Below, in pieces: positions 10,157 through 40,243 of a DNA stretch of 42,926 nucleotides. The position numbers and the translations under genes are program-made. Within the stretch, counting starts at the first letter, position 1, and every line of letters starts with the position of its first letter. The notes beneath the pieces are model-generated. The model did no database searches, was not told the origin of the DNA, and worked only from the letters and a program-made list of their open reading frames with translations. The stretch lies in NCBI RefSeq assembly GCF_029946505.1, contig NZ_JARZHG010000009.1, positions 1 to 42,926 on the forward strand. The letters run 5' to 3'. Origin of the DNA: Polyangium sp. y55x31 (lineage in GTDB: Bacteria; Myxococcota_A; Polyangia; Polyangiales; Polyangiaceae).

Positions 10157-10170
10157 CGAGGCTCTGTCTC

Positions 10171-23374: not shown

Positions 23375-26300
23375 TCAAGGGTTGGGGCGAGGGGGAGCTC
23401 CACCCTGCCCCTGCCCCAGCGACACGAGCGCCCGCTCCACGTCGGTGCGGTACGCATTGTCCATCGCCGCGACCTCCTTGAAGCGGAGATAACTCTTCAC
23501 GGCCTTGTCCTTTTGCCCCGTGGCGCGCATCGCCTCGCCGTGGAGGAAATACGCGTCGGCGTGCCAGCTCTCCGCGGGGCCGTTCTTCTGCAAGAGCAGC
23601 TCCACGGCCTTGTCGAGCTCCGGCGTGGCCGCGAGCTTGTTGCCGTTCGATTCGAAGATCTTGCCGAGCCGATAATGCCACTCGGCGACCGAGCCATTGC
23701 CCGCGATCGCCTTTTGCCACGCCGTCTGCGCCTCCGGCCAGCGGCCGAGCTCCTGATAACAAAGCGCCATCGTGGCGTGCGCCTCGTGCCGGGAGGGGCG
23801 CTTTTGCAAGGCAATTTCGAGGTCCGCGAGGGCGTCGAGCGTGCGGCCCTGCTTGTGGAGCAAGACGCCGCGTTGCCAGTAGGCGTCCGCGAGCTCGCGG
23901 TCGAGCTCGAGGGCGCGCTTCAAGGCCGCCTCGGCCTTCGGGAACTGACCGAGGACGTTCGCCGCCCAGCCGACATAGAGGAAATACTCGGCGCGATTGC
24001 CGTCGATCTCCGTGGCCCGTTCGAGGAATCGAATGGCCTCGCCCGCTGCCGACGAGCCGCCCTTCAAGAGGAGGGCGCGGCCGAGGAAATGGTTCGCGTC
24101 CGCGGAGCCGGCGCGCTCTTTCAAGACCTCGCGCAGGATCGGCTCGGCCTGCGCCGCGTGGCCCGCCATGACCTGCGCGGAGCCGACCCGCATTTTGAGG
24201 TCGATGTCCGTCGGCGCCTTTTCGAGCGCCGCCGCATACATCTCGAGCGCGCGCTCGCTCTGGCCCGTCTCCTCGTAAAGGAGGCCGCGCTCCAGCGAGA
24301 GGCCGGGGAATTCCTTGTCGACGGTCGCAATCTGGTCGAAGACCTTCTGCGATTCCTCGAACGCGCCCATGCGGCGGAGCGTGACGCCGAGGCGGAAGCG
24401 CGTGCCGAGGTCGTCCTCTTTGGCGAGCGCGGCCTCGAATTCGGTGCGCGCCTCGGGATAACGGCCGGCCTGCGAGAAGACCTCGCCCTTGGCGCGGTGG
24501 AGCGCCGGGAGGTCGGGGAACTTGGCGCTGGCCTCGGCGAGCTTGGCCTGCGCCTCGTCATTGCGGCCGGCGGCCGAGAGGAGCGAGGCGAGCGCGACGT
24601 AGGCCTCGACGGCCTCGGTCTGCGTGCCGCCGAGCTTGATGGCCTGGAGGTAAAGGGCCTCGGCTTCCTTCTTGTTGCCGAGCGCATCCTCGACGCGGCC
24701 GAGCCAGTAGGCGGACGCGGCGGCGTCGGGTTTGTCGGCGCGGAGTTTTTCGGCGAGGGCCTTGGCGTCCTTGAGGCGTTCGAGCGCGAGGAGGGTCTTC
24801 GTCGCGCCGATGCGGGCCGGGAAGCTGGTCTCGTCGACACGCATGGCCTCCTCGAAACGGAGGAGGGACTGGGAGAAGCGGCTCGATCGATAAAAGAGCT
24901 CGCCGTCGCCGATGAGCGCGGCGCCGCTGCGCGGGTCGATCTTGAGCGCAGCGGCGAAGGCCTGTTCAGCCGCGGTGATGCGGGAGCGGGCGAGGTGGAT
25001 GCGGCCGGTTTCGAGGTAGGCCTCGACGAGCTCGCGTTCGCTGGCAGAGGCGCGGATGTCGCCCTCGGCGGTGACCTTGCCGAGGAGGTCGAGGGCGTCG
25101 GTTTCCTTGGCGGGGTCGCGGCCGAGGATCGAGGCGAGCAAGGTGCGCGCGCCGGCGTGCTTGGGAGAAGCTTCGAGCGCGGCGCGGGCGCTCTTCTCGG
25201 CAGAAGCGGCGTCGCCCTTGGCAAGCTCGGCGCGGGCGAGGCCGTAGAGGGAGCGGGCGCCCTTGCGGATGGAGACGGCGCGTTTCCACGCGACGAGCGC
25301 GTCGGCGGTGGCGCCGGAGGCAAGCTCGATCTCGCCGATCAGGACAGCGGCGTCGATGTCGTTCGCGTCGGCGTCGAGCGCGTCCTTGGCCATGCGGCGC
25401 GCCGGATCGAGGCGGCCCGCGAGCGCGTGTTGCGCGGCGACCGCGAGGGTGCGCTCGCGGCTCGGGCTCTCGGTCTGTCCGAGGAGCTGCTTGCCGAGGG
25501 TCTCGTCGTCGCCGCGGCGGCCATGGCGGACGCTTCGGGAGAAGGCGACATACGCGGCATACGCGGCCGTCGCGCGGTGGCGCGGGCGCGAGAGTTGCGC
25601 AGCCTTGGCAGCTGCGAGCGCGCGCGCGGCGGCCGCGGCGGTGTCCTCGTCGAGCGTGGCCTGCGTGTTCTTTTCGAGCCCGCTGAGCGCCTCGGCATGC
25701 GCGGAGGCGTTCACGAGATCACTCACGGCGTGCGCGCCGAACGGGCCGATGTCGGGAAGGAGCGCGAGCGCGCCGCCGCCGATCGCGATAAGGACGGCCG
25801 CGCCGATGCCGTACACACGGCCGCGGCCACGGGGCCGCTTTTCACCGGCGGGCCGCGCGAGGCTCTTCGGGGATCTGTCGCGTTTGGCGAGGGCCGTGTC
25901 GAGCCCCTCGGACTCGCCCGGCGCGAGGTCGACCTCGTCGCCGATGCCCGCGTCGTCCTCCGGAGGAGGCGCGGGCGCGCGGGGCGCGGCGGCCGCGGGG
26001 ACGTCGGCGCGCTGGGTCGCCGCGCCCGTGCTGATCGGCGCGCCCGTCGAGAGGTCCATGTCCGGTTCGCCGAGGGAAAACTCTTCGCCCGGCTTGGAGA
26101 CGGGGGCCGCAGCGCGTGTGCTCGCCGGCGGCGCCGGCGTGGCCGGCTTGGGCGCGGCGGCGGCCTTGTTCGGCGGGGGATCGGCGAACGCGGCGTCGAA
26201 GGCCGCGTCGTCGAGCTCGAAGCCGGCCGTCGCGGACGCGGCGGCGCGCGGCCGCGACGCGGGAGATGCCGCAGGCGCAGGCGGCGGCTCACTCGCGAGG

Positions 26301-27736
26301 GGAAACTCGAGCTCGCCGAAGTCGCCGCCCGAATCGAAGGCCGCGATCGAGGCGGCCGGGACGGTCGCGCCGGGATCGAGCTTGCGGTTCGCGTCGCCCC
26401 GGGACGCGGCCCCCGCAGGCGGCGGCAGCTCTTCGGGCGCGGGCAGGTCGAGCTCGCCGAAGGCGCCGAGATCGGGCGCCGGGAGATCGATCTCGCCGAA
26501 GTTGCCGAGGTCGGAGTCGGCGGAGACGGCGGGCAGGTCGAAGCTGCTGAGCGGTTTTCCGCGCAGCGCCGTCATCGCGCCGGAGGAGCGGTGCCGCGGG
26601 CCGGGCGCGGCCGGCGCGGGGAGATCGGCAGGCTCGTTCTTCGCGGGAGCGCGCGCGGGCGCGGGGAGATCGATCTCGCCAAACCCCTTCGCCGCAGGCG
26701 GCGCGGGGCGCGCAGCGGCGGGGCGCGCCGGCGCGGGGAGATCGATCTCGCCGAACCCCTTGGCCGCGGGCGCGGGGCGCGCGGGGGCGGGCAAATCGAG
26801 CTCGGGCGTGCTCTTCTTCGCGGGGCGCGCGGGGCTCGGCAGATCGATCTCCGGCGCGGGCGCGTTCTTCGCCGCGGGACGAGCGGGCGCGGCGAGGTTC
26901 TCTTCCGGCTTCGGCGGCGGCGGCTTCGGCGCGGCGGGGCGCGCGGGCGAGGGCAGATCGATCTCGCCGAACCCCTTCGCCGCGGGGCGCGCGGGCGCGG
27001 TCGGTTTGTCGTCCGGCTTCGGAGGACCAGGCTTCGCCGCGGCCGCGCGCGTGGGCGACGGCGACGGCGACGGTAGATCGACTTCGAGCGAGGCCGTCAC
27101 CGGGGTCGCCATCTGCCGGACCGTCGGCTTGTTCGAGGGTACGCCGGGGGGCAGCTCGATCGCCGCGAGCGCCGCGTCCTCCTCCTCTTCATCATCGAGG
27201 GGGAATTCGTTCACGACCGCGGCCATCTGCCGCACGGTCGGCTTCGCGGGCATGGGCAGGTCGACGAGCTCTTCCTCTTCGGCCGCGGGCAAGGCGGCCG
27301 GCATCTGCCGCACCGTCGCCTTCGCGGGCGAAGGAAGATCGATCTCGCCGAACCCCGGATCGTCATCACCGCCCCACAGATCGAGCTCCGTGGCTTCCGC
27401 GGGCTTCGGCGCGGGCGCAGCGGGCTTCGGGGCGGGCGCGGGCGCAGCAGGCTTGGGCTTCGCAGGGAGCACGGGCGGCTTCGGCGCGACCGGAGCGGCC
27501 GGCGCTTTGCCCAGCGCAGGGCGCGGCAGGAGCGGCTCGGTGCCACCTTTCGCGCGCGGCGCGACCGGCGAGGGGAGATCGATCTCCTCGGCCTCCGCCG
27601 GCTCCGCAGGTTTGCGGACCAAGAGGCTCGTGCCGCACTTCGAGCAGCGCATCTTGAGCCCCGTCGCCGGGATCCGTCGTTCCTCCACCTGGTACGGCGA
27701 CCTACAGGAGTCGCACTCGACCTTGACCATGCTCAT
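23375..27736 (-). CDS. MJ0042-type zinc-ribbon / Pro-Ala-rich repeat linker / single-TM / large TPR-repeat protein (~1453 aa). Its architecture resembles the myxobacterial GltJ(AgmX) class.
   Basis: Track ORF 23375..27781. Preferred start is MSMVKVECDSCRSPYQVEERRIPATGLKMRCSKCGTSL (CxxC…CxxC zinc ribbon at the extreme N-terminus). The ~600-aa linker carries 8 or more copies of GFGEIDLP[AS]PARPA and 3 copies of KPTVRQM. A TM helix follows (VYGIGAAVLIAIGGGALALLP), then ~800 aa of TPR-like repeats. Confidence 0.75.
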   Translation of the reverse strand: MSMVKVECDSCRSPYQVEERRIPATGLKMRCSKCGTSLLVRKPAEPAEAEEIDLPSPVAPRAKGGTEPLLPRPALGKAPAAPVAPKPPVLPAKPKPAAPAPAPKPAAPAPKPAEATELDLWGGDDDPGFGEIDLPSPAKATVRQMPAALPAAEEEELVDLPMPAKPTVRQMAAVVNEFPLDDEEEEDAALAAIELPPGVPSNKPTVRQMATPVTASLEVDLPSPSPSPTRAAAAKPGPPKPDDKPTAPARPAAKGFGEIDLPSPARPAAPKPPPPKPEENLAAPARPAAKNAPAPEIDLPSPARPAKKSTPELDLPAPARPAPAAKGFGEIDLPAPARPAAARPAPPAAKGFGEIDLPAPARAPAKNEPADLPAPAAPGPRHRSSGAMTALRGKPLSSFDLPAVSADSDLGNFGEIDLPAPDLGAFGELDLPAPEELPPPAGAASRGDANRKLDPGATVPAASIAAFDSGGDFGELEFPLASEPPPAPAASPASRPRAAASATAGFELDDAAFDAAFADPPPNKAAAAPKPATPAPPASTRAAAPVSKPGEEFSLGEPDMDLSTGAPISTGAATQRADVPAAAAPRAPAPPPEDDAGIGDEVDLAPGESEGLDTALAKRDRSPKSLARPAGEKRPRGRGRVYGIGAAVLIAIGGGALALLPDIGPFGAHAVSDLVNASAHAEALSGLEKNTQATLDEDTAAAAARALAAAKAAQLSRPRHRATAAYAAYVAFSRSVRHGRRGDDETLGKQLLGQTESPSRERTLAVAAQHALAGRLDPARRMAKDALDADANDIDAAVLIGEIELASGATADALVAWKRAVSIRKGARSLYGLARAELAKGDAASAEKSARAALEASPKHAGARTLLASILGRDPAKETDALDLLGKVTAEGDIRASASERELVEAYLETGRIHLARSRITAAEQAFAAALKIDPRSGAALIGDGELFYRSSRFSQSLLRFEEAMRVDETSFPARIGATKTLLALERLKDAKALAEKLRADKPDAAASAYWLGRVEDALGNKKEAEALYLQAIKLGGTQTEAVEAYVALASLLSAAGRNDEAQAKLAEASAKFPDLPALHRAKGEVFSQAGRYPEARTEFEAALAKEDDLGTRFRLGVTLRRMGAFEESQKVFDQIATVDKEFPGLSLERGLLYEETGQSERALEMYAAALEKAPTDIDLKMRVGSAQVMAGHAAQAEPILREVLKERAGSADANHFLGRALLLKGGSSAAGEAIRFLERATEIDGNRAEYFLYVGWAANVLGQFPKAEAALKRALELDRELADAYWQRGVLLHKQGRTLDALADLEIALQKRPSRHEAHATMALCYQELGRWPEAQTAWQKAIAGNGSVAEWHYRLGKIFESNGNKLAATPELDKAVELLLQKNGPAESWHADAYFLHGEAMRATGQKDKAVKSYLRFKEVAAMDNAYRTDVERALVSLGQGQGGAPPRPNP

Positions 27737-27920
27737 GCCTTCGAGGGGCCCTGGGGCGCGCGATCGTTCCGCGTTGCTCACTTCTACCAGGGTTTGAGGC
27801 TTCGCGGCTCTTTTGCGACACGAGGGGGGCGGCGAACGCGGGCCGAGCAGGCAGCCGAGCAGCGCGGATTCGTCCTCTCGCTTCCGCTGGGCCGGGGAAA
27901 TGTGCTAACGCGCTCGCCCC

Positions 27921-28511
27921 ATGCAGAAAGCGACCGCCTTCCTCTTCGCTGCGTTGGTCCTCGGGGCCATCGCGCTCGTCGTCGTTCCGCGCGGTCGCAG
28001 CGGAAGTTCGTCCACGGAGACGGCGGCAGCAGACGCAGGCACGCCGAGCGACGCAGGCGCAGCGACGACGGCGGACGCAGGCGCGGAGCCCTCGGACGCA
28101 GGCGCGAGCGGCGAGCCCGGCAGTGAACCGGAGCCCGGAGGTCCGGTCGACGCGGGCGGGACGTTGCTCCTCACGGGCGAGGCGCCGCCGCCACTCGCGG
28201 GCGAGGCGCCGAAGTCGGTCGTGTTCGGGGTGATCCTCGTGCAGTACAAGGGCGCGCAGGGCGCTCTGCCGAACGCGCGGCCCCGCGAGGAGGCGCTGAC
28301 GCTGGCGAAGCAGCTCGCCGAGGAGGCGAAGACGGACTTCAAGGCGGCGGTGGCGAAGGGCGACAAGGGCTCGATGGAGAACGCGGGGCGACTGCCGCGC
28401 GGAATTTTGGAGCCTGCGCCGGAGTATGTTCTCTTCAGCCTGGCCAAGGGCGCGGTGAGCGAGGTCGTCGACACGCCGCGCGGCTACTGGATCGTGCAGC
28501 GTATCGAGTAG
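27921..28511 (+). CDS. Parvulin-type (PpiC) peptidyl-prolyl cis-trans isomerase domain protein with an N-terminal signal/TM anchor, 196 aa.
   Basis: Track ORF with an ATG start. The C-terminal half (GVILVQYKGAQGA…EEALTLAKQL…SMENAGRLPRG…PEYVLFSLAKGAVSEVVDTPRGYWIVQRIE) follows the parvulin rotamase motif order (HILV … GG.LG.F.RG.M…F…GE.S.PV.T.FGYHII). Confidence 0.6.
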   Translation: MQKATAFLFAALVLGAIALVVVPRGRSGSSSTETAAADAGTPSDAGAATTADAGAEPSDAGASGEPGSEPEPGGPVDAGGTLLLTGEAPPPLAGEAPKSVVFGVILVQYKGAQGALPNARPREEALTLAKQLAEEAKTDFKAAVAKGDKGSMENAGRLPRGILEPAPEYVLFSLAKGAVSEVVDTPRGYWIVQRIE

Positions 28512-28536
28512 GCACGAAGCGAAGGGGACGGACGCG

Positions 28537-28833
28537 ATGGCGCAGATCGACATCCAGAGGCCCCACGGCATGAGCGAGGACGCAGCGCGGCGTCGCGCCG
28601 AGGATCTGGCGAGGCGCCTGGAACAACGCCGCGGGGTGCGCTGGCGCTGGGAAGGCGACGAGCTGCGTCTCGACGCACCGAGCGGTCCGGCAAAAGGGAC
28701 GCGGGGGTCGGTGCGCGTGACCGCAGAGGCCGTACGGATCCGGGTGGAGCTGCCGCTCTTGCTGCGCGCGATGCGCCCCGTGGTCGAGTCGAAGCTGCAC
28801 GAGAAGCTCGACGCGATGCTCGGCAAGGCCTGA
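28537..28833 (+). CDS. Polyhydroxyalkanoic-acid-system family small protein (PHA_gran_rgn-like DUF), 98 aa.
   Basis: Track ORF; MAQIDIQRPHGMSEDAARRRAEDLARRLEQRRGVRWRWEGDELRLDAPSGPAKGTRGSVRVTAEAVRIRVELP resembles that family. GAAGGGGA lies 8 nt upstream. Confidence 0.5.
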   Translation: MAQIDIQRPHGMSEDAARRRAEDLARRLEQRRGVRWRWEGDELRLDAPSGPAKGTRGSVRVTAEAVRIRVELPLLLRAMRPVVESKLHEKLDAMLGKA

Positions 28834-28843
28834 GGGCGTCGCG

Positions 28844-28860
28844 CCGGGGTTTCACCCCGG
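28844..28860 (+). terminator. Stem-loop CCGGGGT-ttc-ACCCCGG 10 nt after the stop of the PPIase/PHA gene pair. Candidate intrinsic terminator (GC stem, no U-tract).
   Basis: Seen in the sequence. Confidence 0.4.
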
Positions 28861-28867
28861 ACCCCGA

Positions 28868-29330
28868 CCAGGGGTTGTCCACCCCTGGACCCGGACCAGC
28901 GCAAGCGCTGGACTCGGGGTTGATGAACTGCGCGGTGCGCAGTTCATCAAACAGCCGGTGGCAAGACCGGCGACGACCCTGCCAGCCACGACGGCAGCGC
29001 GGCTCGACAGGCCACACCCCGTCGCCGCGTGAGACGAACCCTCGCGGTCTTGCCACGGGCCCGTCGGAGAAACTGCGCATCGCGCAGTTTCTCCGCCTTC
29101 GGTCCAGGCCGTGCCTGGTCCGGGGTGCAGGGGGCGGACAGCCCCCTGCTGGGGTACGGGGCAAAGCCCCGCTCCGCGCCTCCCTGTGGAACCCCTGAGC
29201 GAGCGAGCAGGCGAAGCTGGGGCATGGGGGCGCGGGCGGGGCCCTTGCCCACGATCGGGGTGGCCGTGGCGAACGCGTGCCGCGGGGGAATGGCCGCGCG
29301 TCGCGGCATGGTGTGGGATCGTCGCGATCC
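28868..29330. repeat. Cluster of 8-10 perfect GC-rich palindromes/hairpins in the ~550-nt leader upstream of the giant TPR gene pair. It includes two covarying long palindromes: TTGATGAACTGCGC-ggt-GCGCAGTTCATCAA (28920..28950) and GAGAAACTGCGC-atc-GCGCAGTTTCTC (29067..29093).
   Basis: Seen in the sequence. Further hairpins: CCAGGGG-N7-CCCCTGG (28868..28888), CCAGCGC-aa-GCGCTGG (28896..28911), CCAGGC-cgt-GCCTGG (29104..29118), CAGGGGGC-ggaca-GCCCCCTG (29128..29148), GGGGC-aaa-GCCCC (29157..29170), GCCGCG-cgt-CGCGGC (29293..29307), GGATCG-tcg-CGATCC (29316..29330). Confidence 0.6.
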
Positions 29331-29389
29331 GTCGCGAGCACGCTTTACTCCCGACGCACCGTTTGGCTAGTCTCCCCACGCAGCATGCA

Positions 29390-32300
29390 ATGGACCAGAA
29401 ACCCGTCTCCGCGGGAGGCGCGTCGAGCCCAATGACGGTAGAGACACCCATGCCCACGGGGCAGGCCGAGGATGCGGCGGCCTTCCTCAATCGTTTACGG
29501 TCCGAGCACGCCGCGCAGGAGGACAACGCGCTCCAAGCGCTGCTCCTGCACGAGTGCGGCGTCCTCGAAGAGAAGCACGGGGAGGAGCCGTCCGCCGCGC
29601 GGGACTACCTCGCCGCCTTCAACGCGGATCCGCAGAACCGCGAGTCGCTCGAGGCCCTCGTCCGGATCTTGACCCGACGCAAGTCCATCAAGAACCTCGG
29701 AAAACTGCTCGAAGCGCTGACACGCGCCTCCGTGACCCCGGAGGAGCGCGCTCGCGCGTTCTGGGAGCGCGCTGCGTTCCTGCAGGACTACGAGCAGAAT
29801 CTTCCGGGCGCAAAAGAAGCGCTCGAAGAGGCTGTCGGCGCGAGCCCCGAGGACCCGACGCCGTGGCTCGAGCTCGAGCTCATCGCGGCGAAGGACGGTG
29901 ATCTGCCTGGCCGCATGCGCGCCATCGAAGCGCGCGCCGAGCTCGCCTCCGATCCGACGTGGAAGGCGTTCCTGTTCATCGAGCTTGCGGAGCTGTCGGC
30001 CAAGGCTGGCGACACGCAGCGCGCGTACGATCTGATCGACGCCGCCGCCGCGCTGGATGGTCAGGGCCGTTTCCGGTCGCAGGTGACGCTCGAAGCGATC
30101 GCGGCGCGGGAGGACAACACGACGGCGCTCGCGCGGGCCCTCGAAGGTCAAGCGCAGCTCATCGAGGACGCCCTCGAGGACGCAGAGCGCGGCGACGCGA
30201 GCGGCGTGCCTCGCTACGCGCGGCGCCCCGAGTACGCGGCCGACGCGTGGCTGCGCGCGGCAGAGCTGAAGCGGCGCGCGGGTGATCAAGAAGGCTGGGT
30301 GAAGCTCCTCGCGCGGGCTGCCGAGCAGCTCCCGCAATCGTCGCTCATCGCGCGGTCGCGGCTCGCCTCGCTGGAGACGAACGGCGACGCGAAGGGCGCG
30401 GCCGATCTCGCGCGGGCCGAGCTTGCGCGCGGCACGCCGGGCCCGGCTGCGGCGGCGCTCTGGCTGCGCATCGCCGAGGCGGCGATGCTCGACAACGATC
30501 GGGACGGCGCGCTCGCCGCGCTGCGCAGCGCGCTCGAAGCGGACCCGGCGTCGATCATGGCGCGTGCGCTCGAGCTCGATCTGCTGAGCGACGCGCAGGA
30601 TCCGGCGGCGCTCGCGCGATCGCTCGAAGCCTCCGGCGCGTCGTGCCCGACGAACGAGGCGAGGGCGCGCGCGGAGATCATCGCGGCCTACGTGTGGGCT
30701 TGCCAGGCCGGTGAGTCGGACGCCGCGAAGGCGGCGCTCGGCCGGGCCGCGGCGCTCGGCACGCCGGCGCCGCTCCTCGCGCGGATCGCCCGCACCCTCG
30801 CCTCCGTCCGCGGCGACGCGGCGTGGTACGAGCAGGTGACGGCGGAGCTCGTGGGCAGCGGCGCGGAGCCGGGCGAAGAGGCGAGCCTCTGGTTCGAGCT
30901 CGGCCGGAGCCGCGCGCTCCGGGGCGACGCGGATGGCGCGGCCGAGGCGTTCGCGAAGCTCGCGACGCTCGAAGGCGACGCTTCGACGTGGCTCGGCCGC
31001 GTGCTCGCGGCGTATGCGCTCGGCGCGAAGAAGCCGGCGGACGGCGAGGTGATCACGTTCCGCCCGATCGCGGCGACGATCGAGGAGCTCGCGAAGGTCG
31101 AGACGGACCCGAGCCTCGCGCGTGGCCTCTGGGTGGTCGCTGCGCTGCGCAGCACGCGCGCGGGCAACCTCGATGCGGCGCGCGCGCGGCTGCGCGAGCT
31201 GCACGAGGCGCAGCCGTCGGACGAGGTGGTGGCGCTCTTCCTCGCGGACCTCGAGCGTCGCGCAGGGGACCTCGCGGCCGCGTCGAACATCCTGTCGGCG
31301 TGCGCGACGGCGACCGAGGACATCGACCTCGGCGCCGCGCTCTACCTGGAAGCTGCGCTTCTCACGTGGCGGATCGGCGATCGGCAGAAGACGATCGAGC
31401 TCATCGAGCAGGCGCGCGGCAGCGCGTCGAAGGCGGCTGCGGCGCTGCTCGCGTGGGCGCTGCGCGGGGCTGATCCCGACAGCCTCGACGGTCGTCGCCG
31501 CGCGCTGCTCACGGCGGCGGAGGCGGGCGCGGATCCGGCGAGCATCGCGATCGAGCGCTTCGGCCTGGAGGTGGGTCAGGGCGAGGCGGGCGATCGCGCC
31601 GAGGCGCTCACGGCGCTGGAGACGGCCGAGGCCGAGGGCTCGGGCGACATCACGGTCGCTGCGGGGCTCGCGCGCTTGACGTGGCCCGACGCGCAGAGTG
31701 ATCGGGCGGCGATCGATCGCGCGCTCGATCGTCTGGAAGACCAGGGCGACGAGGCGACGGCGATCGCCCGCGCCGAGGCGTACCGGCTCGCGCGCGTGGT
31801 CGATCAGGACCCGGGCGCGGCGGTGACACGCGCGGCGGCCTGGGCGGACGCGGAGCCGAAGCTCTACGCCGCGCTCGAGTGGCTCGGGTCGGCGCTCGCC
31901 GCGAAGGATCGCGAGGCCGAGGTGGCCGCGCGACAGGCGGTGGGTTCGTTCCTCGACGACGAGCCGTGGTCGGCGATGGATGCGTCGGCCGCGCTCGTGG
32001 CGATGCTGGATCAGCCGAGCACGCCGCAGCCCTTGCTCGCGGGGACGTCGGATGCGACGCGCCTCGCGAACCTGGAGCTCGCGATGCCCGGCTGCGATCC
32101 GCGCCGCCGCGCCTTCGCCCTGCAGAACGTGGGCGGGGCGCTCGGCGAGGAGGCGGGCAGCGACGCGTCGGCGCTCTCCGGCTGGTCGGAGCTCGCGGCG
32201 GGCAACGTGGAGGCGGCGCTCGCCACCTTCCGCGCGGCCGTCGAGCGTCGCCAGGACGACATCGTGTCGTGGGAGGGCGTGCGCGCGGCGAGTGAGGCGC

Positions 32301-34192
32301 TCGGCGACCACGTCTCCACGGCGCTCGCGCTCGCGCAGCTCGGCGCCCTCAGCAAGGACGACGCGCGCGGCGCGGCGTTCTGGGAGTCCGCGGGCATCAT
32401 CCTGCTCGATCACACCGACGCGCACGACGACGCGGAGATCGCGTTCGCGCGGGCGTTCGATCGGGATCCGAGCCGGTCGGTCGCCTTCGACAAACTCTTC
32501 CGCCGCGTACGTTCGCGCAACGAGGACGACAAGCTGCTCGACATCATCGGGCGCCGCCTCGACGTGGCCGACGACGAGGCGGAGATCGGCAAGCTCTTCT
32601 GGGAGCGCGCGCGCGTGCTCCGCAAGAAGGGTGATCGCGAGGGCGCGCTCTCGGCGCTCGAGAACGTCACGATGCTCGAGCCCGATCACGTCGGCGCGCT
32701 CGCGCTCGCCGGCGAGATCTCGATCACGATGGGCAAGTTCGCCGAGGCGGCGGACCTCCTCGGCCGGCTCTCGGGCATCGGCGAGGCGCCGGCGCAGCAG
32801 CGGCTGATGTCCGGCGTCGCGGCGGTGGACATCTACGAGAACAAGCTGAACGCCCCGGAGAAGGCGCTCAAGGTGCTCGTGGGTCTCCACGAGGCCGGCC
32901 TGTCCACGCCGCCCGTGCGCGAGCGCCTCGCGCGCGTCGCGGCGAAGACGGGCGCGTGGTCGCGCGCGACGGGGATCCTCGAGCAGCTCATGCAGGAGCG
33001 TGACAAGCGCGAGGGTCGCATGGAGGCCGCGCGGCTCGCGATGGCCATCTGGCGCGACAAGCTGAACGATCCGCTCAAGGCCGAGAGCTCGGTCGTGAAG
33101 CTGCTCGACGAGTCGCCGGACGACGGCGAGGCGCTCGATCTCGTGCTGACCACGAGCTACGACGCGGCGCTCCGGCAGCGCTTGCTCGGGCGCGCGAAGA
33201 GCGTGCTCGTGCAGAAGCTCTCCGAGGATCCGTGCGACGCCGACCGCGTCGAGCGGCTCGCGAAGATCGCGCAGGCAGGGCAGGACGCGGCGCTCCGGCA
33301 GGCGACGCTCGGCTGCCTCGTCTCGCTCGGTCGCGACGACGACGCGATCTCGACGGAGCTCAAACGGATCGACGGTCGCGTCGCGACGCGGCCGCAGATC
33401 GTGCTCGACGCGAAGGCCATGGCCGAGATCGCCGATCCGGAGGACAACGGCCCGATCGCGGAGCTCTTCGTGCTCATGGCCGAGACGGTGACGCTCGCGC
33501 TCGGCCCGACGCTCGGCTCGCTGAACGTCGGCAAGAAGGAGCGCATCGACTCGCGCGGCGGCCACCCGCTGCGCGTAGCGGTCGCCGAGTGGATGGGCGC
33601 GGTGGGCTTCGAGGGCGACTTCGAGCTCTACGTGGGCGGCCCCGAGCCGAAGGGCGTGCACGGCGTCGCCGGCGAGGTGCCCGCGATCGTCGTCGGGTCC
33701 GGGATCACGACGCCGCTCGACGCGGCGGCGCGCTCGGCCATCGCGCGCACGGTCTTCGCCCTGCGGCGCGGGATCACCTCGCTCCGCACGCGCGACGAGG
33801 CCACGGTCGCGTCCGTGGTCATCGCGGCGTGCAACGAGGTCGACATCAAGGTCGCGAACCCCGGCTACGCGGTCTACGGCGAGATCCAGCGCGCGGTGCA
33901 CAAGGAGATCTCGCGCAAGATCCGCAAGAGCATCGGCGAGGTTTGCCAGAAGGTCGTTTCGAGCAAGCAGGACGCGCGCGCGTGGACGAACGCGGCGCGT
34001 CGCAGCCTGGATCGCATGTCGGTGATCGCCGCCGGCGACGTCTCGATCGTACTGAGCGACATCCTGAGCGTGCCGCGAGATCAGCTCGGCTCGGTGGTCA
34101 CCGAGAGCGAGCGCTCGCGCCGCCTTCTCTCGTTCGTGCTTTCCCCCAGCTACCTCGAGCTGCGCAAGAAGCTCGGCATGGGTGTCCGGTGA
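29390..34192 (+). CDS. Giant TPR-like / alpha-helical repeat protein A (1600 aa) with a conserved C-terminal globular domain. Function unknown.
   Basis: M94 (MDQKPVSAGGASSPMTVETPMPTGQAEDAAAFLNRL) of track ORF 29111..34192. The upstream 93 codons lie in the palindrome leader and are not coding. Long TPR-like helical hairpins (…LFWERARVLRKKGDREGALSALENVTMLEPDHVGALALAGEISITMGKFAEA…). Confidence 0.7.
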   Translation: MDQKPVSAGGASSPMTVETPMPTGQAEDAAAFLNRLRSEHAAQEDNALQALLLHECGVLEEKHGEEPSAARDYLAAFNADPQNRESLEALVRILTRRKSIKNLGKLLEALTRASVTPEERARAFWERAAFLQDYEQNLPGAKEALEEAVGASPEDPTPWLELELIAAKDGDLPGRMRAIEARAELASDPTWKAFLFIELAELSAKAGDTQRAYDLIDAAAALDGQGRFRSQVTLEAIAAREDNTTALARALEGQAQLIEDALEDAERGDASGVPRYARRPEYAADAWLRAAELKRRAGDQEGWVKLLARAAEQLPQSSLIARSRLASLETNGDAKGAADLARAELARGTPGPAAAALWLRIAEAAMLDNDRDGALAALRSALEADPASIMARALELDLLSDAQDPAALARSLEASGASCPTNEARARAEIIAAYVWACQAGESDAAKAALGRAAALGTPAPLLARIARTLASVRGDAAWYEQVTAELVGSGAEPGEEASLWFELGRSRALRGDADGAAEAFAKLATLEGDASTWLGRVLAAYALGAKKPADGEVITFRPIAATIEELAKVETDPSLARGLWVVAALRSTRAGNLDAARARLRELHEAQPSDEVVALFLADLERRAGDLAAASNILSACATATEDIDLGAALYLEAALLTWRIGDRQKTIELIEQARGSASKAAAALLAWALRGADPDSLDGRRRALLTAAEAGADPASIAIERFGLEVGQGEAGDRAEALTALETAEAEGSGDITVAAGLARLTWPDAQSDRAAIDRALDRLEDQGDEATAIARAEAYRLARVVDQDPGAAVTRAAAWADAEPKLYAALEWLGSALAAKDREAEVAARQAVGSFLDDEPWSAMDASAALVAMLDQPSTPQPLLAGTSDATRLANLELAMPGCDPRRRAFALQNVGGALGEEAGSDASALSGWSELAAGNVEAALATFRAAVERRQDDIVSWEGVRAASEALGDHVSTALALAQLGALSKDDARGAAFWESAGIILLDHTDAHDDAEIAFARAFDRDPSRSVAFDKLFRRVRSRNEDDKLLDIIGRRLDVADDEAEIGKLFWERARVLRKKGDREGALSALENVTMLEPDHVGALALAGEISITMGKFAEAADLLGRLSGIGEAPAQQRLMSGVAAVDIYENKLNAPEKALKVLVGLHEAGLSTPPVRERLARVAAKTGAWSRATGILEQLMQERDKREGRMEAARLAMAIWRDKLNDPLKAESSVVKLLDESPDDGEALDLVLTTSYDAALRQRLLGRAKSVLVQKLSEDPCDADRVERLAKIAQAGQDAALRQATLGCLVSLGRDDDAISTELKRIDGRVATRPQIVLDAKAMAEIADPEDNGPIAELFVLMAETVTLALGPTLGSLNVGKKERIDSRGGHPLRVAVAEWMGAVGFEGDFELYVGGPEPKGVHGVAGEVPAIVVGSGITTPLDAAARSAIARTVFALRRGITSLRTRDEATVASVVIAACNEVDIKVANPGYAVYGEIQRAVHKEISRKIRKSIGEVCQKVVSSKQDARAWTNAARRSLDRMSVIAAGDVSIVLSDILSVPRDQLGSVVTESERSRRLLSFVLSPSYLELRKKLGMGVR

Positions 34193-34224
34193 GCCACGAC
34201 TCTGGAGCAAAGGATCAAGGTCCC

Positions 34225-37200
34225 GTGAGCGAGCCCCAAGACGAGATCGACCTCGCAGAGGACGCGATCGAAGACGACGACGACGACGCTGCGACCATCA
34301 TGGCGCACGTGCCCGACGAGCTGATGGCGTCGCTGCGCAACTCCCGCAGCGAGCCCGAGATCGGCGAGGTGACCGCGCGCATGAAGGAGGACGTGCGGCA
34401 CGAGATGCCCACGAGGCCCGAGGATGACGGGCTCGTGGAGGCCCTCGTCGACGAGACGAAGACGCCGCCGGCCGCGGACACGAGCGCCCACGACGCGGTG
34501 ACGCCCGCAGGGCCTGCCGTCGTCGAGACGCCAGTCGCCGCGGCCGTGGAAGAGCTGGAAGTCGAGCCCGAGGACGACGTCCCGGCCGCGCCGTCGCGTC
34601 GCGAGCGCGCGCCCGTCGCGGGAGCGCCGAAGTTCGACGACGAGCAGGACGCGAGCGCGCACCTCGTGCGCACGCAGCAGCGTGACGCGTGGGCCGAGCG
34701 GGCCGCATGGCTCCGCGCGGAAGCGGAGGCGATGGAGGACAAGGCTGCGCGCGCGAGAGCGCTCGTGGCCGTGTCCGAGATCTACGCGATGGCGGGCGAG
34801 GAGCAGACGGCGCGCGCGATCGCGGCAGAGGCGCGCGATCTCGCGCCGAGCTCTCCGCTCGCGCATCGCCAGATCCGCGGCTTGCTCGCGCGTGATCAGG
34901 ACTGGCAAGGCACGATCGAGGTGCTCGACACCGAGGCGCGCATCGCGCCGACGCCGGCCGCGCGCGCCCACGCAGCCGTGCTCGGCGCCGAGGTCCTGCG
35001 CATCCGCCAGGAGGACGAGGAAGGCGCGCAGAAACGCATGGACCTCGCGCAGCGCGCGCTGCCCACGGATCCGCGCCCGCACGTGCAGCGCTTCTGCGAG
35101 GCGCTCGGCGGCGAAGGCGACGCCTTCACGAAGGTGCGCGCGCCCGAGACGAGCGAGCTTTCGGCGCTGCGCGACGCGTTCACCCAGGTCGCGATCCATC
35201 GCGGCGTGGTGCCGCGTGGCCTCCGCGGTGTCGTCTCCGCGTACGACGCGCTCCTCCGTGCGCGCGCGGCGCTCGAAGCGGGCGACGTGTCCCTCGCGGT
35301 GTCGAGCCTCGGCCGCCTGCGCAGCACCGCCTCCCTCAAGGGCGGCGCGGGCTGGCTCGCGGGCATGCTCGCGGCCGCGAGCAAGGACACGCGGCCGGGC
35401 TCGATCGAGGCCCTGCGCGGCGCGCTCGACGGCACGCACGACGCCGACGCACGGCGCGCCCTCGCGGCCCGCGCGATCGAGCTCGGCGACGCCGCCGCGG
35501 CGCGCGCGGCCGTCGAGGGCAGCGACACGATCGCGTTCTCGGCTGCCGATCGCCTGTCGTTGACGGCGCTCATCGGAGGCTCGCGTGAGCTCTTCGAGCA
35601 GGCCGTCGACGCGGCCGCGGGCGACGACGAGCTCGCGCCGCTGCTCGCTGCGGCGAGCGCGGCCTCCCGCGAGGCCGACACGGCTTCGAGCAGCGTCGTC
35701 GGCACGGGCAGCCCGAGCGCGCGTGCTTCCGCGGCGCTCGGCCGCGCCCTCGCCGACGCGCGCACCGACGGCAAGCCCCTCGGCGAGAACGACGCGCTCG
35801 CCGCGGCGATCCTCGGCTACACCGAACACGCCGCCGATGGCGGCACGGGCCGCGCGCTCAAGCTGGAGCTCGACCTCGAGTCGAAGGCCGGCGCGAGCGT
35901 CGCTCGCGCCGTCGCCGCGTGGCGCGGCGCCGAGGACGGGGATCGCGACAGCGCGCTCGCGGGCGCGCTCCTCGCCGAGCTCGCGGGCGACGCGGAGCTC
36001 GCGGCCGAGGGGTACGATCGCGCGCGCCAGGCCGATCCGGCCCACGAAGGCGCCACGCGCGCTCGCGCGACGGGCGCCGACGCCACCACCGCGTCGAGCG
36101 TCCTCGCCGGCCTCGCGCAGTCGATCGAGCCGGGCACGCGCGCCGCGCTCTTGCTCACGGAGGCGGCGATCCGCTTGCTCGAGGTCGAGGTCCCCGACAC
36201 CTCGATCGACGACGAGCGCGACAAACTCCTCCGCGGCGCGGCCGAGATCGACGCGCGCCTCCCGCTCTCCGTGCACCTCGGCGAGCGCACGGCGCGCGGC
36301 GTGGGTGATCGCGACGGCCTCATCGAGTGGCTCCACCTCCGCCGCCAGGCGAGCGAGGATCCGATCGAGCAGGCCCGCGACTTCGTGCGCGAAGCGCTCA
36401 TCACGCCGGAAGGCGCCGCGCACGCGGCAGGCCTGCTCGCGCAGGCGCTCACGGCGCGACCGGACGACATCGGCCTGCGAGAGCTCTACGAGCGCCTCTC
36501 GCCGGAGCGCCCCGCGGATCGCGCGGCCTGGCGCGCCGAGCGTGCGGCGGCCTCTGCGGGCTCCGACGCCGCGCGCTTCTCGCTCGAAGCCGCGCTCGAG
36601 TACGAGCGCGACGGCGACCTCGAGAAGGCCGCGGCCCTCGCGCGGCAAGCCATCGCTGCGGGCGAGACGCTCCTCGCGCCGCTCTGCGCGTACCGCGCCG
36701 CGCTCGCGGGCCACGGCACGAGTGATCTCGTCGACGGCCTCTTGCAGTACGCCCGCGCGACGGAGGACTCCGTCGAGCGGCTCCAAGCGTACGAGCGCCT
36801 CGCCGAGCTCGACGAGATCGGCCGCGGCGACGCGGCGAGCGGCCTGCTCTGGCGCCGCACGATCCTCGAAGAGACGGAGGCGCACCTGCCGACGCTCCGC
36901 CGCGTCGCGAGCGCCCTCATCGCGGGCGGCCGCGACGAGGAGCTCGAACCGGTCGTCTTCACGCTCGCGAGGACGCTCGAAGGCCCCGAGGCCATCGCGC
37001 ACGCGCACCTCTCCGCGCGCCTTCGCCTCCGCATCCACGGCTGGGACGAGGCGCGCGAGCCGGTCGAGATCGCCTACCGCAACGAGCCTCGTGGGCTCTG
37101 GGCGCTCCGCCAGATGGCGGCGCACGCCCGCGCGCGCGGCGACGAGGCGACGGCGCTCGAAGCCGACCTCGAGCTCGCGAACCGCACCGAGCGCGCCTCC

Positions 37201-39228: not shown

Positions 39229-39244
39229 TCCCTCCCGCCCGCGC

Positions 39245-40243
39245 TTGCCCTCGCGCCTCTTCCCCTCCGCGGCGGCCCTCCTCTTCGGGGCCGCCGCCTG
39301 CTCCTCCCCGGACGCCTCGCCTGCGCCCACCCCGCCTGCGTCTGCGGCTGCTGCGCCGCCTGCGCCCGCTCCCCTCCCCTCGGCTGCGCCTCCGCCCGAA
39401 CCTTCCCGCTGCGCCGCCGTCGCCTGCGCCTCCATCGAGCGCTGCGACGAGGCCACGGGCGCGTGCGTCCCGCATTGCCCTGCGGGCGAGGTTTACATCC
39501 CGAAAACCGGCCCCGATGGGTTCGTCATGGGCAAAGGTTTTACCTTGAACGGCGGCGCGCGCCGCCTCCGCAAGGGACACCAGCCCGACTCCGATCGCCC
39601 CCACCGCGTCGTCCTCACCCGCCCGTTTTGCATGGACGAGACCGAGGTCACCGTCGCCGCCATGAAACAATGCGTCGACGCGAAGGCCTGCGACCCGCCG
39701 AAGACCCTCGAAGTCTGGGCGAACTATCCCCGCCGCCCCGATCACCCCGCCAACGAAGTCTCCTGGGACAAAGCCAAGAAGTATTGCAAGGCCCAAGGAA
39801 AGGACCTCCCCACCGAAGCGCAATGGGAATGGGCGGCGACCGGCGGCGACGGACGCAAATGGCCCTGGGGCAATGACGAACCCACCTGCGAGCACGCCGA
39901 TTTCACGATCGGCGTCCTCGTCTCGCCCGGCGGCGACTCCGGCTGCCACGGCGGCGGCACCTCGCCCGTGCGTTCGCATCCGAAGGGCGACCGCGCCTGG
40001 CCCACGGGCACCCTCCACGACCTCGCGGGCAACGTCTGGGAATGGTGCGACGACACCTACGCCAAATATGGCGCGGACCCGGTCACGGATCCCCATGTGC
40101 AAAAGCCCGGCGTCCTCGTGCACGTCGTGCGCGGGGGCGGCTGGAATCGCTCGAACCTCGGCATCCAGACGGCCTTCCGCGGCGCCGCCATTCACACCTA
40201 CGAGGTCCCCGGGCTCGGCTTTCGTTGCGTCCGGAACCCGTGA
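39245..40243 (+). CDS. Formylglycine-generating-enzyme (FGE)-sulfatase / SUMF1-family domain lipoprotein, 332 aa.
   Basis: Track ORF (TTG start, so the start is uncertain). Signal with …LLFGAAAC lipobox. Family motifs: …VSWDKAKKYC…, …GNVWEWCDD…, …VVRGGGWN…, …GFRCVRNP. Confidence 0.8.
   Translation: MPSRLFPSAAALLFGAAACSSPDASPAPTPPASAAAAPPAPAPLPSAAPPPEPSRCAAVACASIERCDEATGACVPHCPAGEVYIPKTGPDGFVMGKGFTLNGGARRLRKGHQPDSDRPHRVVLTRPFCMDETEVTVAAMKQCVDAKACDPPKTLEVWANYPRRPDHPANEVSWDKAKKYCKAQGKDLPTEAQWEWAATGGDGRKWPWGNDEPTCEHADFTIGVLVSPGGDSGCHGGGTSPVRSHPKGDRAWPTGTLHDLAGNVWEWCDDTYAKYGADPVTDPHVQKPGVLVHVVRGGGWNRSNLGIQTAFRGAAIHTYEVPGLGFRCVRNP

Follow-up and report, generated by a model that had tools for sequence, protein, structure and literature searches.

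REPs are imperfect palindromes of ~20–40 nt that lie outside genes in many copies, and the gene for the RAYT, a Y1 transposase, is flanked by two inverted REPs. Hairpin-forming doublets of REPs, the REPINs, were reportedly described in Pseudomonas fluorescens by Bertels and Rainey in 2011; REPINs measure ~70–110 nt, use a single REP type and have a cognate RAYT. The ERIC/IRU elements of enterobacteria and the Correia/NEMIS elements of Neisseria combine one long stem with short terminal repeats and a TA duplication, and effects of ERIC/IRU and Correia elements on mRNA stability or termination have been reported. In REPs, palindromicity is preserved by complementary mutations and a GT(A/G)G head lies 5′ of the palindrome; no RAYT homologues were reported from other major bacterial lineages (PMC2817692).

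The window analyzed here is a stretch of 42,926 nt, and a cluster of palindromes ahead of a giant TPR gene led us to examine positions 28834–29389. These 556 nt contain 12 perfect hairpins (stem of at least 6, loop of at most 8), against a mean of 2.5 ± 1.6 and a maximum of 10 in 1000 dinucleotide shuffles, in agreement with the at least nine perfect inverted repeats in ~550 nt claimed in a preliminary description. The two longest perfect hairpins of the 43-kb window are found here (28920–28950 and 29065–29095) and share the core AACTGCGC-N3-GCGCAGTT, which occurs twice in the window compared to 0.01 times by chance. Their distal stems are unlike each other and each is still self-complementary. 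The shared core and the differing distal arms had both been described before, and the length given for the second stem needs correcting, from 12 to 14 bp (29065–29095). Both 14-bp hairpins turned out to belong to a larger inverted repeat, each forming the inner portion of one of its arms; in this repeat 28926–28969 matches the reverse complement of 29045–29089. Nine of the 12 hairpins are parts of a single ~350-nt element (~28835–29193), and the other three (29293–29337) lie outside it in native DNA upstream of the promoter. Pattern, nhmmer and covariance-model searches found no further copy of the element within the 43-kb window.

We conclude that 28835–29193 is very probably one copy of a non-coding, Polyangium-specific interspersed repeat of ~320–350 nt. 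The copy is supported by its absence at orthologous loci and by two arm matches, found by both nhmmer and the covariance model, and it is 86% and 85% identical over its full length to copies at two unrelated loci (L097 and L023). Eight orthologous loci were without the element and kept the gene order; the set comprised P. jinanense, P. fumosum, three metagenome or read-assembly contigs, Sorangium and Chondromyces. The window was aligned with L001, P. jinanense, P. fumosum and L005, and also with L105, Chondromyces and Sorangium. At this locus the window has the element, P. jinanense, P. fumosum and L005 lack it, and L001 retains a collapsed shell. Relative to P. jinanense, the element is extra DNA, and the insert spans 28835–29199 if one copy of the flanking repeat CCTGAG is included.

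All features of the window copy are given on the + strand, where the A arm comes first. The element directly adjoins the stop codon of the upstream gene PHA_gran_rgn (28537–28833, 98 aa, Pfam PF09650, E = 3.5e-24), which is outside the element, and the left CCTGAG (28829–28834) holds the TGA stop of that gene. The A arm begins with an outer segment, GGCGTCGCG (28835–28843), with a family consensus of GSCGYYGCG that is kept in the sets of 73 and 111 arms that we compared. It is followed by hp1, CCGGGGT-TTC-ACCCCGG (28844–28860), which is helix 1 of alignment A3 and is 99.8% paired with three pairs changed on both sides; by hp2, CCAGGGGT-TGTCC-ACCCCTGG (28868–28888), as helix 2 98.7% paired with five such pairs; and by hp3, CCAGCGC-AA-GCGCTGG (28896–28911), taken from the hairpin list and corresponding to helix 3 of the alignment. 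The last hairpin of the arm is hp4A, TTGATGAACTGCGC-GGT-GCGCAGTTCATCAA (28920–28950, 14-bp stem), which differs from the family consensus TCGATGAACTGCGC-GAT-GCGCAGTTCATCGA by a compensated change of C:G to T:A. The left half of an inner long-range stem, GCCGGTGGCAAGACCG (28954–28969), pairs with the right half, CGGTCTTGCCACGGGC (29045–29060), as inverted repeat I5 with 94% complementarity, and the family conserves this stem as GGCAAGACC and GGTCTTGCC. The central variable domain between the two halves (28970–29044) has an imperfect hairpin of its own, and family-wide the two cores are 70–219 nt apart across it.

The B arm mirrors this order, starting with hp4B, CGGAGAAACTGCGC-ATC-GCGCAGTTTCTCCG (29065–29095, 14-bp stem). 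Three stem pairs of hp4B depart from the family consensus TGGAAGAACTGCGC-NNN-GCGCAGTTCTTCCA, and all three are compensated. The hairpin list and comparison of the arms then place hp3′, CCAGGC-CGT-GCCTGG, at 29104–29118; hp2′, GCAGGGGGC-GGACA-GCCCCCTGC, at 29127–29149; and hp1′, CGGGGC-AAA-GCCCCG, at 29157–29171. The right outer segment, CTCCGCGCC-TCCCTGTGGAACC (29172–29193), is a degenerate copy of the family outer segment, for which the consensus on this side is the reverse complement of GCATGGGTCTCATCTGGGAG-GSCGYYGCG, and the right CCTGAG (29194–29199) was placed from the sequence and from comparison with P. jinanense. The only ORF listed in the hairpin region is an upstream extension of the giant gene's own frame, and the codon-position GC test found no coding-like ORF confined to the region or inside the element. 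Together with the absence of this non-coding repeat from the orthologues, this is consistent with the earlier view that the ORFs here are artefacts.

A scan for the exact core returned at least 99 stretches, at least 65 of them in five Polyangium genomes, where the sites are mostly paired at 70–219 nt among the matches listed; at least 34 further matches are single sites in unrelated taxa. Since the core was itself the scan pattern, its invariance is by construction. The element occupies at least 12–17 loci in each of four Polyangium genomes and at least five in a fifth, a MAG, and another P. jinanense scaffold carries a copy with 86% identity to the window copy along its entire length. A second probe, a different 21-mer of the element, matched 34 metagenome contigs. 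Each copy has two inverted arms of ~145 nt with four different hairpins per arm, C-rich linkers and a variable center, and across 73 arms the order hp1-hp2-hp3-hp4 ... hp4′-hp3′-hp2′-hp1′ is fixed and the linkers are conserved. Hairpin units measure 15–31 nt and uninterrupted copies 268–490 nt in total. The outer segment is variably present, which blurs the ends of the element, and all copies lie outside ORFs of coding-like composition. No match to the element was found in plasmid and phage collections, and our literature search found no paper on REP, MITE or REPIN elements in Polyangium or other myxobacteria. The family is apparently an undescribed, genus-specific Polyangium repeat. A family of myxobacterial palindromic repeat elements had been among the candidates of the preliminary description, and with the element at no fewer than 65 unrelated loci this candidate proved correct. 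By the same token, what we found is the generic REP family unlinked to the operon that the preliminary description had named as the outcome that would count against its own headline.

Pairing within the local hairpins is nearly complete across the 73 arms (98.5% of cells), and 14 of 36 pairs have changes on both sides. None of 500 shuffles reached this level, and slid controls were 34–46% paired. The covariation noted earlier is therefore real, but belongs to the repeat family as a whole; the claim that compensatory changes reflect constraint on hairpin structure holds at that level. Over stem columns the Watson-Crick share is 97.2% for the local hairpins compared to 82.4% for arm-to-arm pairing, and the folding stability of the element has z-scores of −9.6 to −11.7. 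Mismatches comprised 34 G·U and 10 A·C, with 32 of the 34 G·U deriving from one ancestral position. The two strands differ in folding energy by ~2.5 of ~90 kcal/mol, favouring the strand antisense to inward transcription; its direction is wrong for inward transcripts, we ascribe it to linker composition, and we discarded it as a test of RNA versus DNA.

Copies usually sit 0–60 nt from stop codons, beside unrelated housekeeping genes. Gene calls in the fetched loci were crude (ORFs and codon-position GC), and with these the inward-reading gene stops 3–104 nt (mostly 5–40 nt) before hp1 in 63 of 99 testable arms. Nineteen of 49 elements sit between two gene ends, and an element is found in 23 of 43 convergent intergenic regions compared to 19 of 122 others (odds ratio 6.2, p = 3e-6). 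The element's terminal TGA was considered as the stop codon of its neighbours and rejected, because stops are found 3–104 nt ahead of hp1, with 18 TAG and 4 TAA among them. In many convergent pairs the stop-to-stop spacer is essentially all element, so transcription of both genes must end within it.

Template switching during replication can keep perfect palindromes without selection. The element could be a selfish or neutral repeat that does nothing for its host, its hairpins kept by template switching or gene conversion between copies and its 3′-end placement marking no more than where insertions are tolerated. Close relatives manage without the element at this locus, copies collapse, invert and take nested insertions, and there is neither a U-tract nor an RNA-specific strand asymmetry, all of which suits such a repeat. 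However, pairing of 97–98% despite 15–25% divergence among copies indicates strong constraint, and the element makes up nearly the whole spacer of many convergent pairs in which both transcripts must end; on balance we consider a repeat without host function possible but somewhat unlikely.

A terminator or insulator role is possible, and we put it forward as a candidate only. The hairpins lack a downstream T-run on the + strand and so are not canonical intrinsic terminators, and a terminator scan gave one weak minus-strand site, no more than in shuffles, and none on the + strand. If the element does act at this level, transcripts of the upstream gene may run on into it, and its very stable stem-loops, then at the 3′ end of that mRNA, would stop transcription or block exonuclease, and at this locus the giant-operon promoter might thereby be insulated from read-through. 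A bolder proposal is that of a mobile 3′-end cassette, in which eight hairpins selected in the transcript would give convergent genes across Polyangium bidirectional termination or mRNA-end protection, or else of a REPIN-like replicator with a hairpin-recognizing partner enzyme of a kind so far not known outside Gammaproteobacteria; we hold this to be unlikely, and offer it tentatively.

The distribution of copies suggests that this interspersed repeat moves around the genome, or did so in the past, as a non-autonomous element of the MITE or REP/BIME type, with copies probably surviving at gene 3′ ends, where harm would be small. One site is occupied in two species in opposite orientations, a copy carries a nested insertion of a second family, and modules are also duplicated. 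The P. jinanense empty site has a single CTGAG where the insert of the window is bounded by the CCTGAG direct repeat, and in this one filled/empty comparison CCTGAG is possibly a target-site duplication; inspection of the flanks of other copies by eye showed no consistent duplication beyond this case. All-against-all clustering of 396 neighbouring ORFs found no recurring linked transposase, the only large cluster being Ser/Thr kinases. When the 150 ORFs closest to copies were searched against Pfam, the families matched by at least two were unrelated housekeeping families, with no transposase. Nor did ~0.6 Mb of sampled Polyangium DNA yield a parent insertion sequence that shares the terminal repeats. 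With neither a transposase nor a parent insertion sequence near the sampled copies, we infer mobility from distribution only.

One way of moving such an element would be as single-stranded DNA, by a RAYT-like HUH tyrosine transposase that recognizes hp4. The replicating unit would then be the inverted hp4A and hp4B with the intervening stem, and the needs of the enzyme would keep the hairpins intact. Two inverted palindromic units able to form one long hairpin, high copy number, extragenic copies, and palindromes that complementary mutations keep intact, as in REPs (Nunvar 2010, PMC2817692), all fit a REP/REPIN-type element. We nevertheless find it quite unlikely: a GT(A/G)G head is not consistently present (the sequence in A arms is GGGGTCGATG, and GTAG precedes hp1 in only 9 of 111 arms), the ORFs surrounding 65 loci include no recurrent Y1 transposase, and the element is three to four times the length of a REPIN, with six extra hairpins for which this mechanism has no use. 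An IS200/IS605-derived element, with same-strand subterminal hairpins and no inverted terminal repeats, was rejected because the ends are inverted copies of each other over ~145 nt.

Alternatively, a dimeric protein (a regulator, or a nucleoid-associated or chromosome-organizing protein) could bind the palindromes as duplex, with the repeat scattering its sites. With 19 bp in perfect dyad symmetry, the core has about the size of an operator and occurs twice per element, but its invariance is a product of the scan pattern, and self-complementarity runs 6 bp past it in A and B arms of different sequence. Three other hairpins per arm are equally compensated, which a half-site consensus does not predict, and the sites lie at gene 3′ ends and not at promoters, making binding of this kind very unlikely.

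Judging by sequence conservation, the real control region of the giant gene is a conserved promoter-like motif with a short leader at 29344–29431. The motif consists of TTTACT (29344–29349), an 18-nt spacer and TAGTCT (29368–29373), all on the + strand and outside the element, and is invariant or nearly so at seven loci from Polyangium to Sorangium and Chondromyces. A simple sigma-70 consensus scan gave no + strand site and did not call TTTACT-N18-TAGTCT, so we infer the promoter function of the motif. The leader (~50 nt, 29374–29431, + strand), also outside the element, has GGGAGG at 29413–29418 and is conserved to Sorangium, and the giant TPR gene itself (29432–34192, + strand) starts at ATG 29432, with ATGACGGT invariant across loci; L005 has ATC in place of the window's ATG at 29390. 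The element ends ~150 nt from the motif on its upstream side, and therefore lies upstream of the probable transcription start. An Rfam 15 search of 28400–29800 (E ≤10) gave two chance microRNA matches only, far below threshold. HMM searches and the covariance-model search that the preliminary description had proposed found no match to the element upstream of the orthologous giant genes at any locus.

The headline of the preliminary description, a structured 5′-UTR or riboregulator whose hairpins would sit in the transcript of the giant TPR operon and control its expression, is thus rejected as extremely unlikely: the block does lie upstream of the giant genes on the same strand with a very stable fold and covarying hairpins, but it is missing upstream of every orthologue examined (98%, 96%, 86%, 80% and ~65% identical in protein sequence), precedes a promoter-like motif that Sorangium and Chondromyces still share, has no Rfam match, and recurs at dozens of other loci, beside unrelated genes and for the most part at the 3′ ends of these.

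This removes a false lead, in that the giant TPR genes have no structured leader of 550 nt, and defines a Polyangium repeat family liable to be taken for regulatory RNA. As many metagenome copies are found at contig ends, the family also breaks short-read assemblies. With its unusually clean hairpin covariation and its bias towards convergent gene ends, it is well suited to studying whether such repeats serve as terminators in GC-rich bacteria, and what mobilizes them.

Among known systems, intrinsic bidirectional terminators are likewise GC-rich stem-loops just after stop codons, typically between convergent genes, whereas the Polyangium element has eight hairpins and no + strand T-run, and is a repeated, movable unit that did not evolve locally. 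ERIC and Correia elements are also non-coding imperfect palindromes of at least 100–150 nt that lie in intergenic transcribed regions, vary in presence between relatives and adjoin no transposase. In contrast to these, the Polyangium element has ~145-nt arms of four local hairpins each, conserves those hairpins and not arm-to-arm pairing, and has the putative CCTGAG duplication of one case in place of TA. Like REPINs, it has an inverted palindromic pair with a spacer, foldable as a whole into one long hairpin, and behaves as a population of replicating non-coding units; unlike them, its hp4A and hp4B are set in a unit three times longer with no known partner gene.

The REP/BIME elements of enterobacteria and pseudomonads differ from the Polyangium element in having one or two alternating REP types, compared to eight hairpins in one fixed symmetric unit of ~335 nt, and in their GT(A/G)G head, in place of which we see GSCGYYGCG before hp1 and GGGGTCG before hp4A (only the B-arm variant has GTGG). 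The host is also a myxobacterium, and no RAYT was found at the sampled loci. The similarities are extensive: both are short GC-rich extragenic palindromes in many copies, often after stops or between convergent genes, both use fixed linkers to build composite mosaics, and complementary mutations keep the palindromes in both (PMC2817692 for REPs). With 15–31-nt extragenic units at many loci per genome, the element also has the size and copy number of REPs. It further resembles MITEs in its inverted ~145-nt arms (82% Watson-Crick complementary), small size, lack of coding capacity and presence/absence polymorphism between related genomes, and it is best filed as a REP/BIME- or MITE-like repeat.

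The gene layout of the window, taken from Pfam matches and codon-position GC content, has a PPIase-like gene (27921-28511, + strand), a 98-aa PHA_gran_rgn gene (28537-28833, +) and two giant TPR genes (~29.4 kb to 34192 and 34189-39228, both +) in succession. With a zinc-ribbon TPR gene on the minus strand at its head, this order is kept across Polyangiaceae (window 23375-40243; also loci L002, L004 and L105-L107), the distant relative L105 being without PHA_gran_rgn. An FGE-sulfatase gene follows the two giant genes in Polyangium, and P. jinanense has ~1.5 kb extra past it, including a second FGE-sulfatase fragment. The hairpin cluster reported in the preliminary description between PHA_gran_rgn and the first giant gene is real: 28834-29389 holds 12 perfect hairpins (stem ≥6, loop ≤8) against a mean of 2.5 ± 1.6 in 1000 dinucleotide-preserving shuffles, none of which reached 12. 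The two long hairpins at 28920-28950 and 29065-29095, the longest perfect ones of the window, do have the core AACTGCGC-N3-GCGCAGTT in common, with no further site in 43 kb (0.01 expected by chance); the second stem is two pairs longer than originally given, making both 14 bp. Three other long perfect palindromes of the window are unrelated to these, namely one at 2906-2929 (CCCCTCTCCC-GAGA-GGGAGAGGGG), one of 22 nt at 15098-15119 (TGCTCTTCGAGCTCGAAGAGCA) and one with an 11-bp stem at 35889-35911.

An exact scan for the core in one genome per species returned at least 99 stretches. Among the matches listed, at least 65 stretches fall in five Polyangium genomes (P. fumosum, P. jinanense, sp. 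15x6, sp. 6x1 and a MAG), where the sites are mostly paired at a spacing of 70-219 nt, and the other 34 or more are single sites in at least 34 unrelated taxa. This bears out the second proposal of the preliminary description, that of a palindromic repeat family. Extended outwards from the core, homology spans the entire insert of the window. A single element therefore accounts for 9 of the 12 hairpins, and the "covarying" pair is hp4 of the element's two inverted arms. From the outside in, the A-arm consensus reads GSCGYYGCG, hp1 (CYGGGGC-KTT-GCCCCRG), hp2 (CCAGGGGY-TGTCC-RCCCCTGG), hp3 (CCAGCGC-AA-GCGCTGG), hp4A (TCGATGAACTGCGC-GAT-GCGCAGTTCATCGA) and GCCGGGTCAAGACC; a variable centre follows, then GGTCTTGCCACCGGC, hp4B (TGGAAGAACTGCGC-NNN-GCGCAGTTCTTCCA), hp3', hp2', hp1' and CGCRRCGSC. 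An extra outer segment, GCATGGGTCTCATCTGGGAG, is present on about a quarter of the arms and was found next to arms only. Full-length alignment gives the window copy 86% identity with one from a different P. jinanense scaffold and 85% with one from P. fumosum. A second probe, a different 21-mer of the element, found 34 metagenome contigs (L108-L141) with the element often at the contig end. Of the 34, 29 come from a single sample (Ga0247823), and many end inside the element, suggesting that it breaks short-read assemblies. There was no match in plasmid and phage collections or in Rfam.

The block is not a conserved part of the giant-gene locus. A read-assembly contig (L001) has an identical PHA_gran_rgn protein and the same giant-gene start but lacks ~330 nt with the hairpins. 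The block is likewise absent from the spacers of P. jinanense (two assemblies) and P. fumosum, whose giant proteins are 98% and 96% identical to that of the window, respectively, and of a metagenome contig with 86% protein identity; these spacers measure 207-267 nt versus ~600 nt in the window. The 98% and 96% identities assign the window to a Polyangium species. The extra DNA relative to P. jinanense is 28835-29199, with a CCTGAG direct repeat at both sides. The same gene order without the hairpin block is found in a contig at greater distance (80%) and in Chondromyces crocatus and a Sorangium strain. As neither alignments nor an HMM and a covariance model of the element placed it upstream of any orthologous giant gene, its reading as a structured leader of the giant TPR operon is not supported. 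In L005, a relative at 86% identity, a divergent single arm (79 bits; 10143-10349, - strand) is placed between the giant gene 2 stop and a convergently oriented Ser_hydrolase gene, downstream of the pair and not upstream.

All seven aligned loci have in common TTTACT-N18-TA(G/C)TCT, a GGAGG motif and ATGACGGT. In the window these comprise a -35-like TTTACT (29344-49), a -10-like TAGTCT (29368-73), GGGAGG (29413-18) and the ATG of the giant gene (29432), with ~150 nt separating the promoter-like motif from the end of the hairpin block upstream. From this conservation we infer that TTTACT-N18-TAGTCT is the promoter of the giant gene, which probably has a leader of ~50 nt; a simple sigma-70 scan did not call the motif. 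An ATG at 29390 was rejected as the start, since L005 has ATC at that site. The motif and short leader (29342-29434) hardly vary from Polyangium out to Sorangium and Chondromyces and are more conserved than the adjacent coding sequence. Within them lies a small hairpin (CGTCTCC-GCG-GGAGGCG, 29404-29420), the loop of which is not the same in L005. Two perfect palindromes that overlap each other, GGATCGTCGCGATCC and TCGCGATCCGTCGCGA (29316-29337), closely precede the -35-like hexamer and are kept in four Polyangium loci and not in L005, Sorangium or Chondromyces; these could be an operator. The window carries one copy of a genus-wide, non-coding multi-hairpin repeat, inserted immediately behind a stop codon and ahead of the conserved promoter-like motif that belongs to the next gene.

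Constraint on the hairpin structure itself held up in an alignment of 73 arms (40 A, and 33 B as reverse complements). The 36 pairs of the four local hairpins are 98.5% paired, 14 of them have changed on both sides (177 cells), and none of 500 shuffles was as high for pairing or changes; sliding the 3' partners by 1-3 columns lowers pairing to 34-46%. That the hp4 core never varies follows from its use as the search pattern. When both kinds of pairing are compared in the same elements, the local hairpins reach 97.2% Watson-Crick versus 82.4% for A-to-B arm pairing, so that it is the local hairpins that are conserved as structure, rather than a single long palindrome. In the window copy, one pair of hp4A and three of hp4B depart from the consensus, all four compensated, and the orthologous copies L014 and L103 differ by two compensated pairs in hp2. 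Palindromes can also be kept perfect without selection, by template switching in quasi-palindromes or by gene conversion.

Several loci capture turnover of the element. The window copy is present without its left outer segment, and the close relative L001 has a collapsed shell (1494-1556) in which both outer segments remain with only GGCGTCGCG-AGC-CGCGCAGC between them, as if the ~330-nt interior had been deleted across the palindrome; in P. jinanense the site is cleanly empty, with a single CTGAG. In one convergent spacer the element lies in opposite orientations relative to orthologous flanking genes (L033 4750-5074 in sp. 6x1, L045 1685-2012 in P. jinanense), by either independent insertion at a preferred site or inversion in place. 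Copies in sp. 6x1 have a second, related repeat nested inside them, with a hairpin ATCGACTGCGC-TTY-GCGCAGTCGAT (L103 ~2340-2430, empty in L014; also L027, L053, L061, L075, L089 and L091). It has an A/T-rich patch, CTTTAAAAA, and lies within the main element, flanked by hp4B and hp3' and accompanied by a duplicated hp3'. In P. fumosum, 600-700 nt of other repeats interrupt two copies (L008 2171-2887; L059 276-826), with head-to-tail units of ~57 nt (…CCTCCAAGGCACGGCCTCGTACCCCCGGAGGCTCGAC…) among them and no coding-like composition. Shell, empty site, opposite orientations and nested repeats together point to a modular element that is or was mobile. No transposase was found near sampled copies, and a candidate target duplication was seen in one case only (CCTGAG).

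With gene calls in the compared loci made crudely from ORFs and codon-position GC, 63 of 99 testable arms have a gene reading towards the element whose stop lies 3-104 nt (mostly 5-40 nt) ahead of hp1, and in none does its ORF read into hp1. Complete elements number 49: two gene ends flank 19 of them, which often take up the stop-to-stop spacer; 17 have a gene end at one side with the other neighbour not called; four are located between genes in tandem and three between diverging ones. The element occupies 23 of 43 convergent spacers; among spacers with tandem or divergent genes it is in 19 of 122 (odds ratio 6.2, p = 3e-6). In all four tandem cases and the window the A arm is towards the upstream gene's stop, an orientation (5/5) that is suggestive only. 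The adjoining genes are unrelated housekeeping genes. A generic repeat without a link to the operon is what the preliminary description itself named as refuting an operon-specific role. The element probably spread non-autonomously, with copies surviving at gene 3' ends. Where the stop codons of convergent genes have nothing but the element between them, as with many copies, transcripts would have to end inside it, and such very stable stem-loops (folding z about -10) might act as transcription stops or exonuclease barriers, the window copy insulating the giant-operon promoter. We hold this reading tentatively, at somewhat under even confidence; the lack of U-runs after the hairpins on the + strand and of strand asymmetry of use counts against it. 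A canonical intrinsic terminator is excluded by the missing U-run.

The nearest known kinds of element are REP/BIME elements, REPINs and MITE-like palindromes such as ERIC and Correia. We found no literature on such repeats in Polyangium or other myxobacteria, and as coverage was incomplete, the element is considered undescribed provisionally. A GT(A/G)G head and a RAYT are defining features of REPs (PMC2817692); the element has no consistent head of this kind, and the surroundings of sampled copies yielded no RAYT. Its inverted ends exclude an IS200/IS605-type origin. It resembles MITEs in having inverted repeats, a small size, no coding capacity and presence/absence polymorphism, and is apparently a new family of a known kind of element, one that warns against taking repeats for riboregulators and offers a clean test case for terminator activity of such repeats in GC-rich bacteria.
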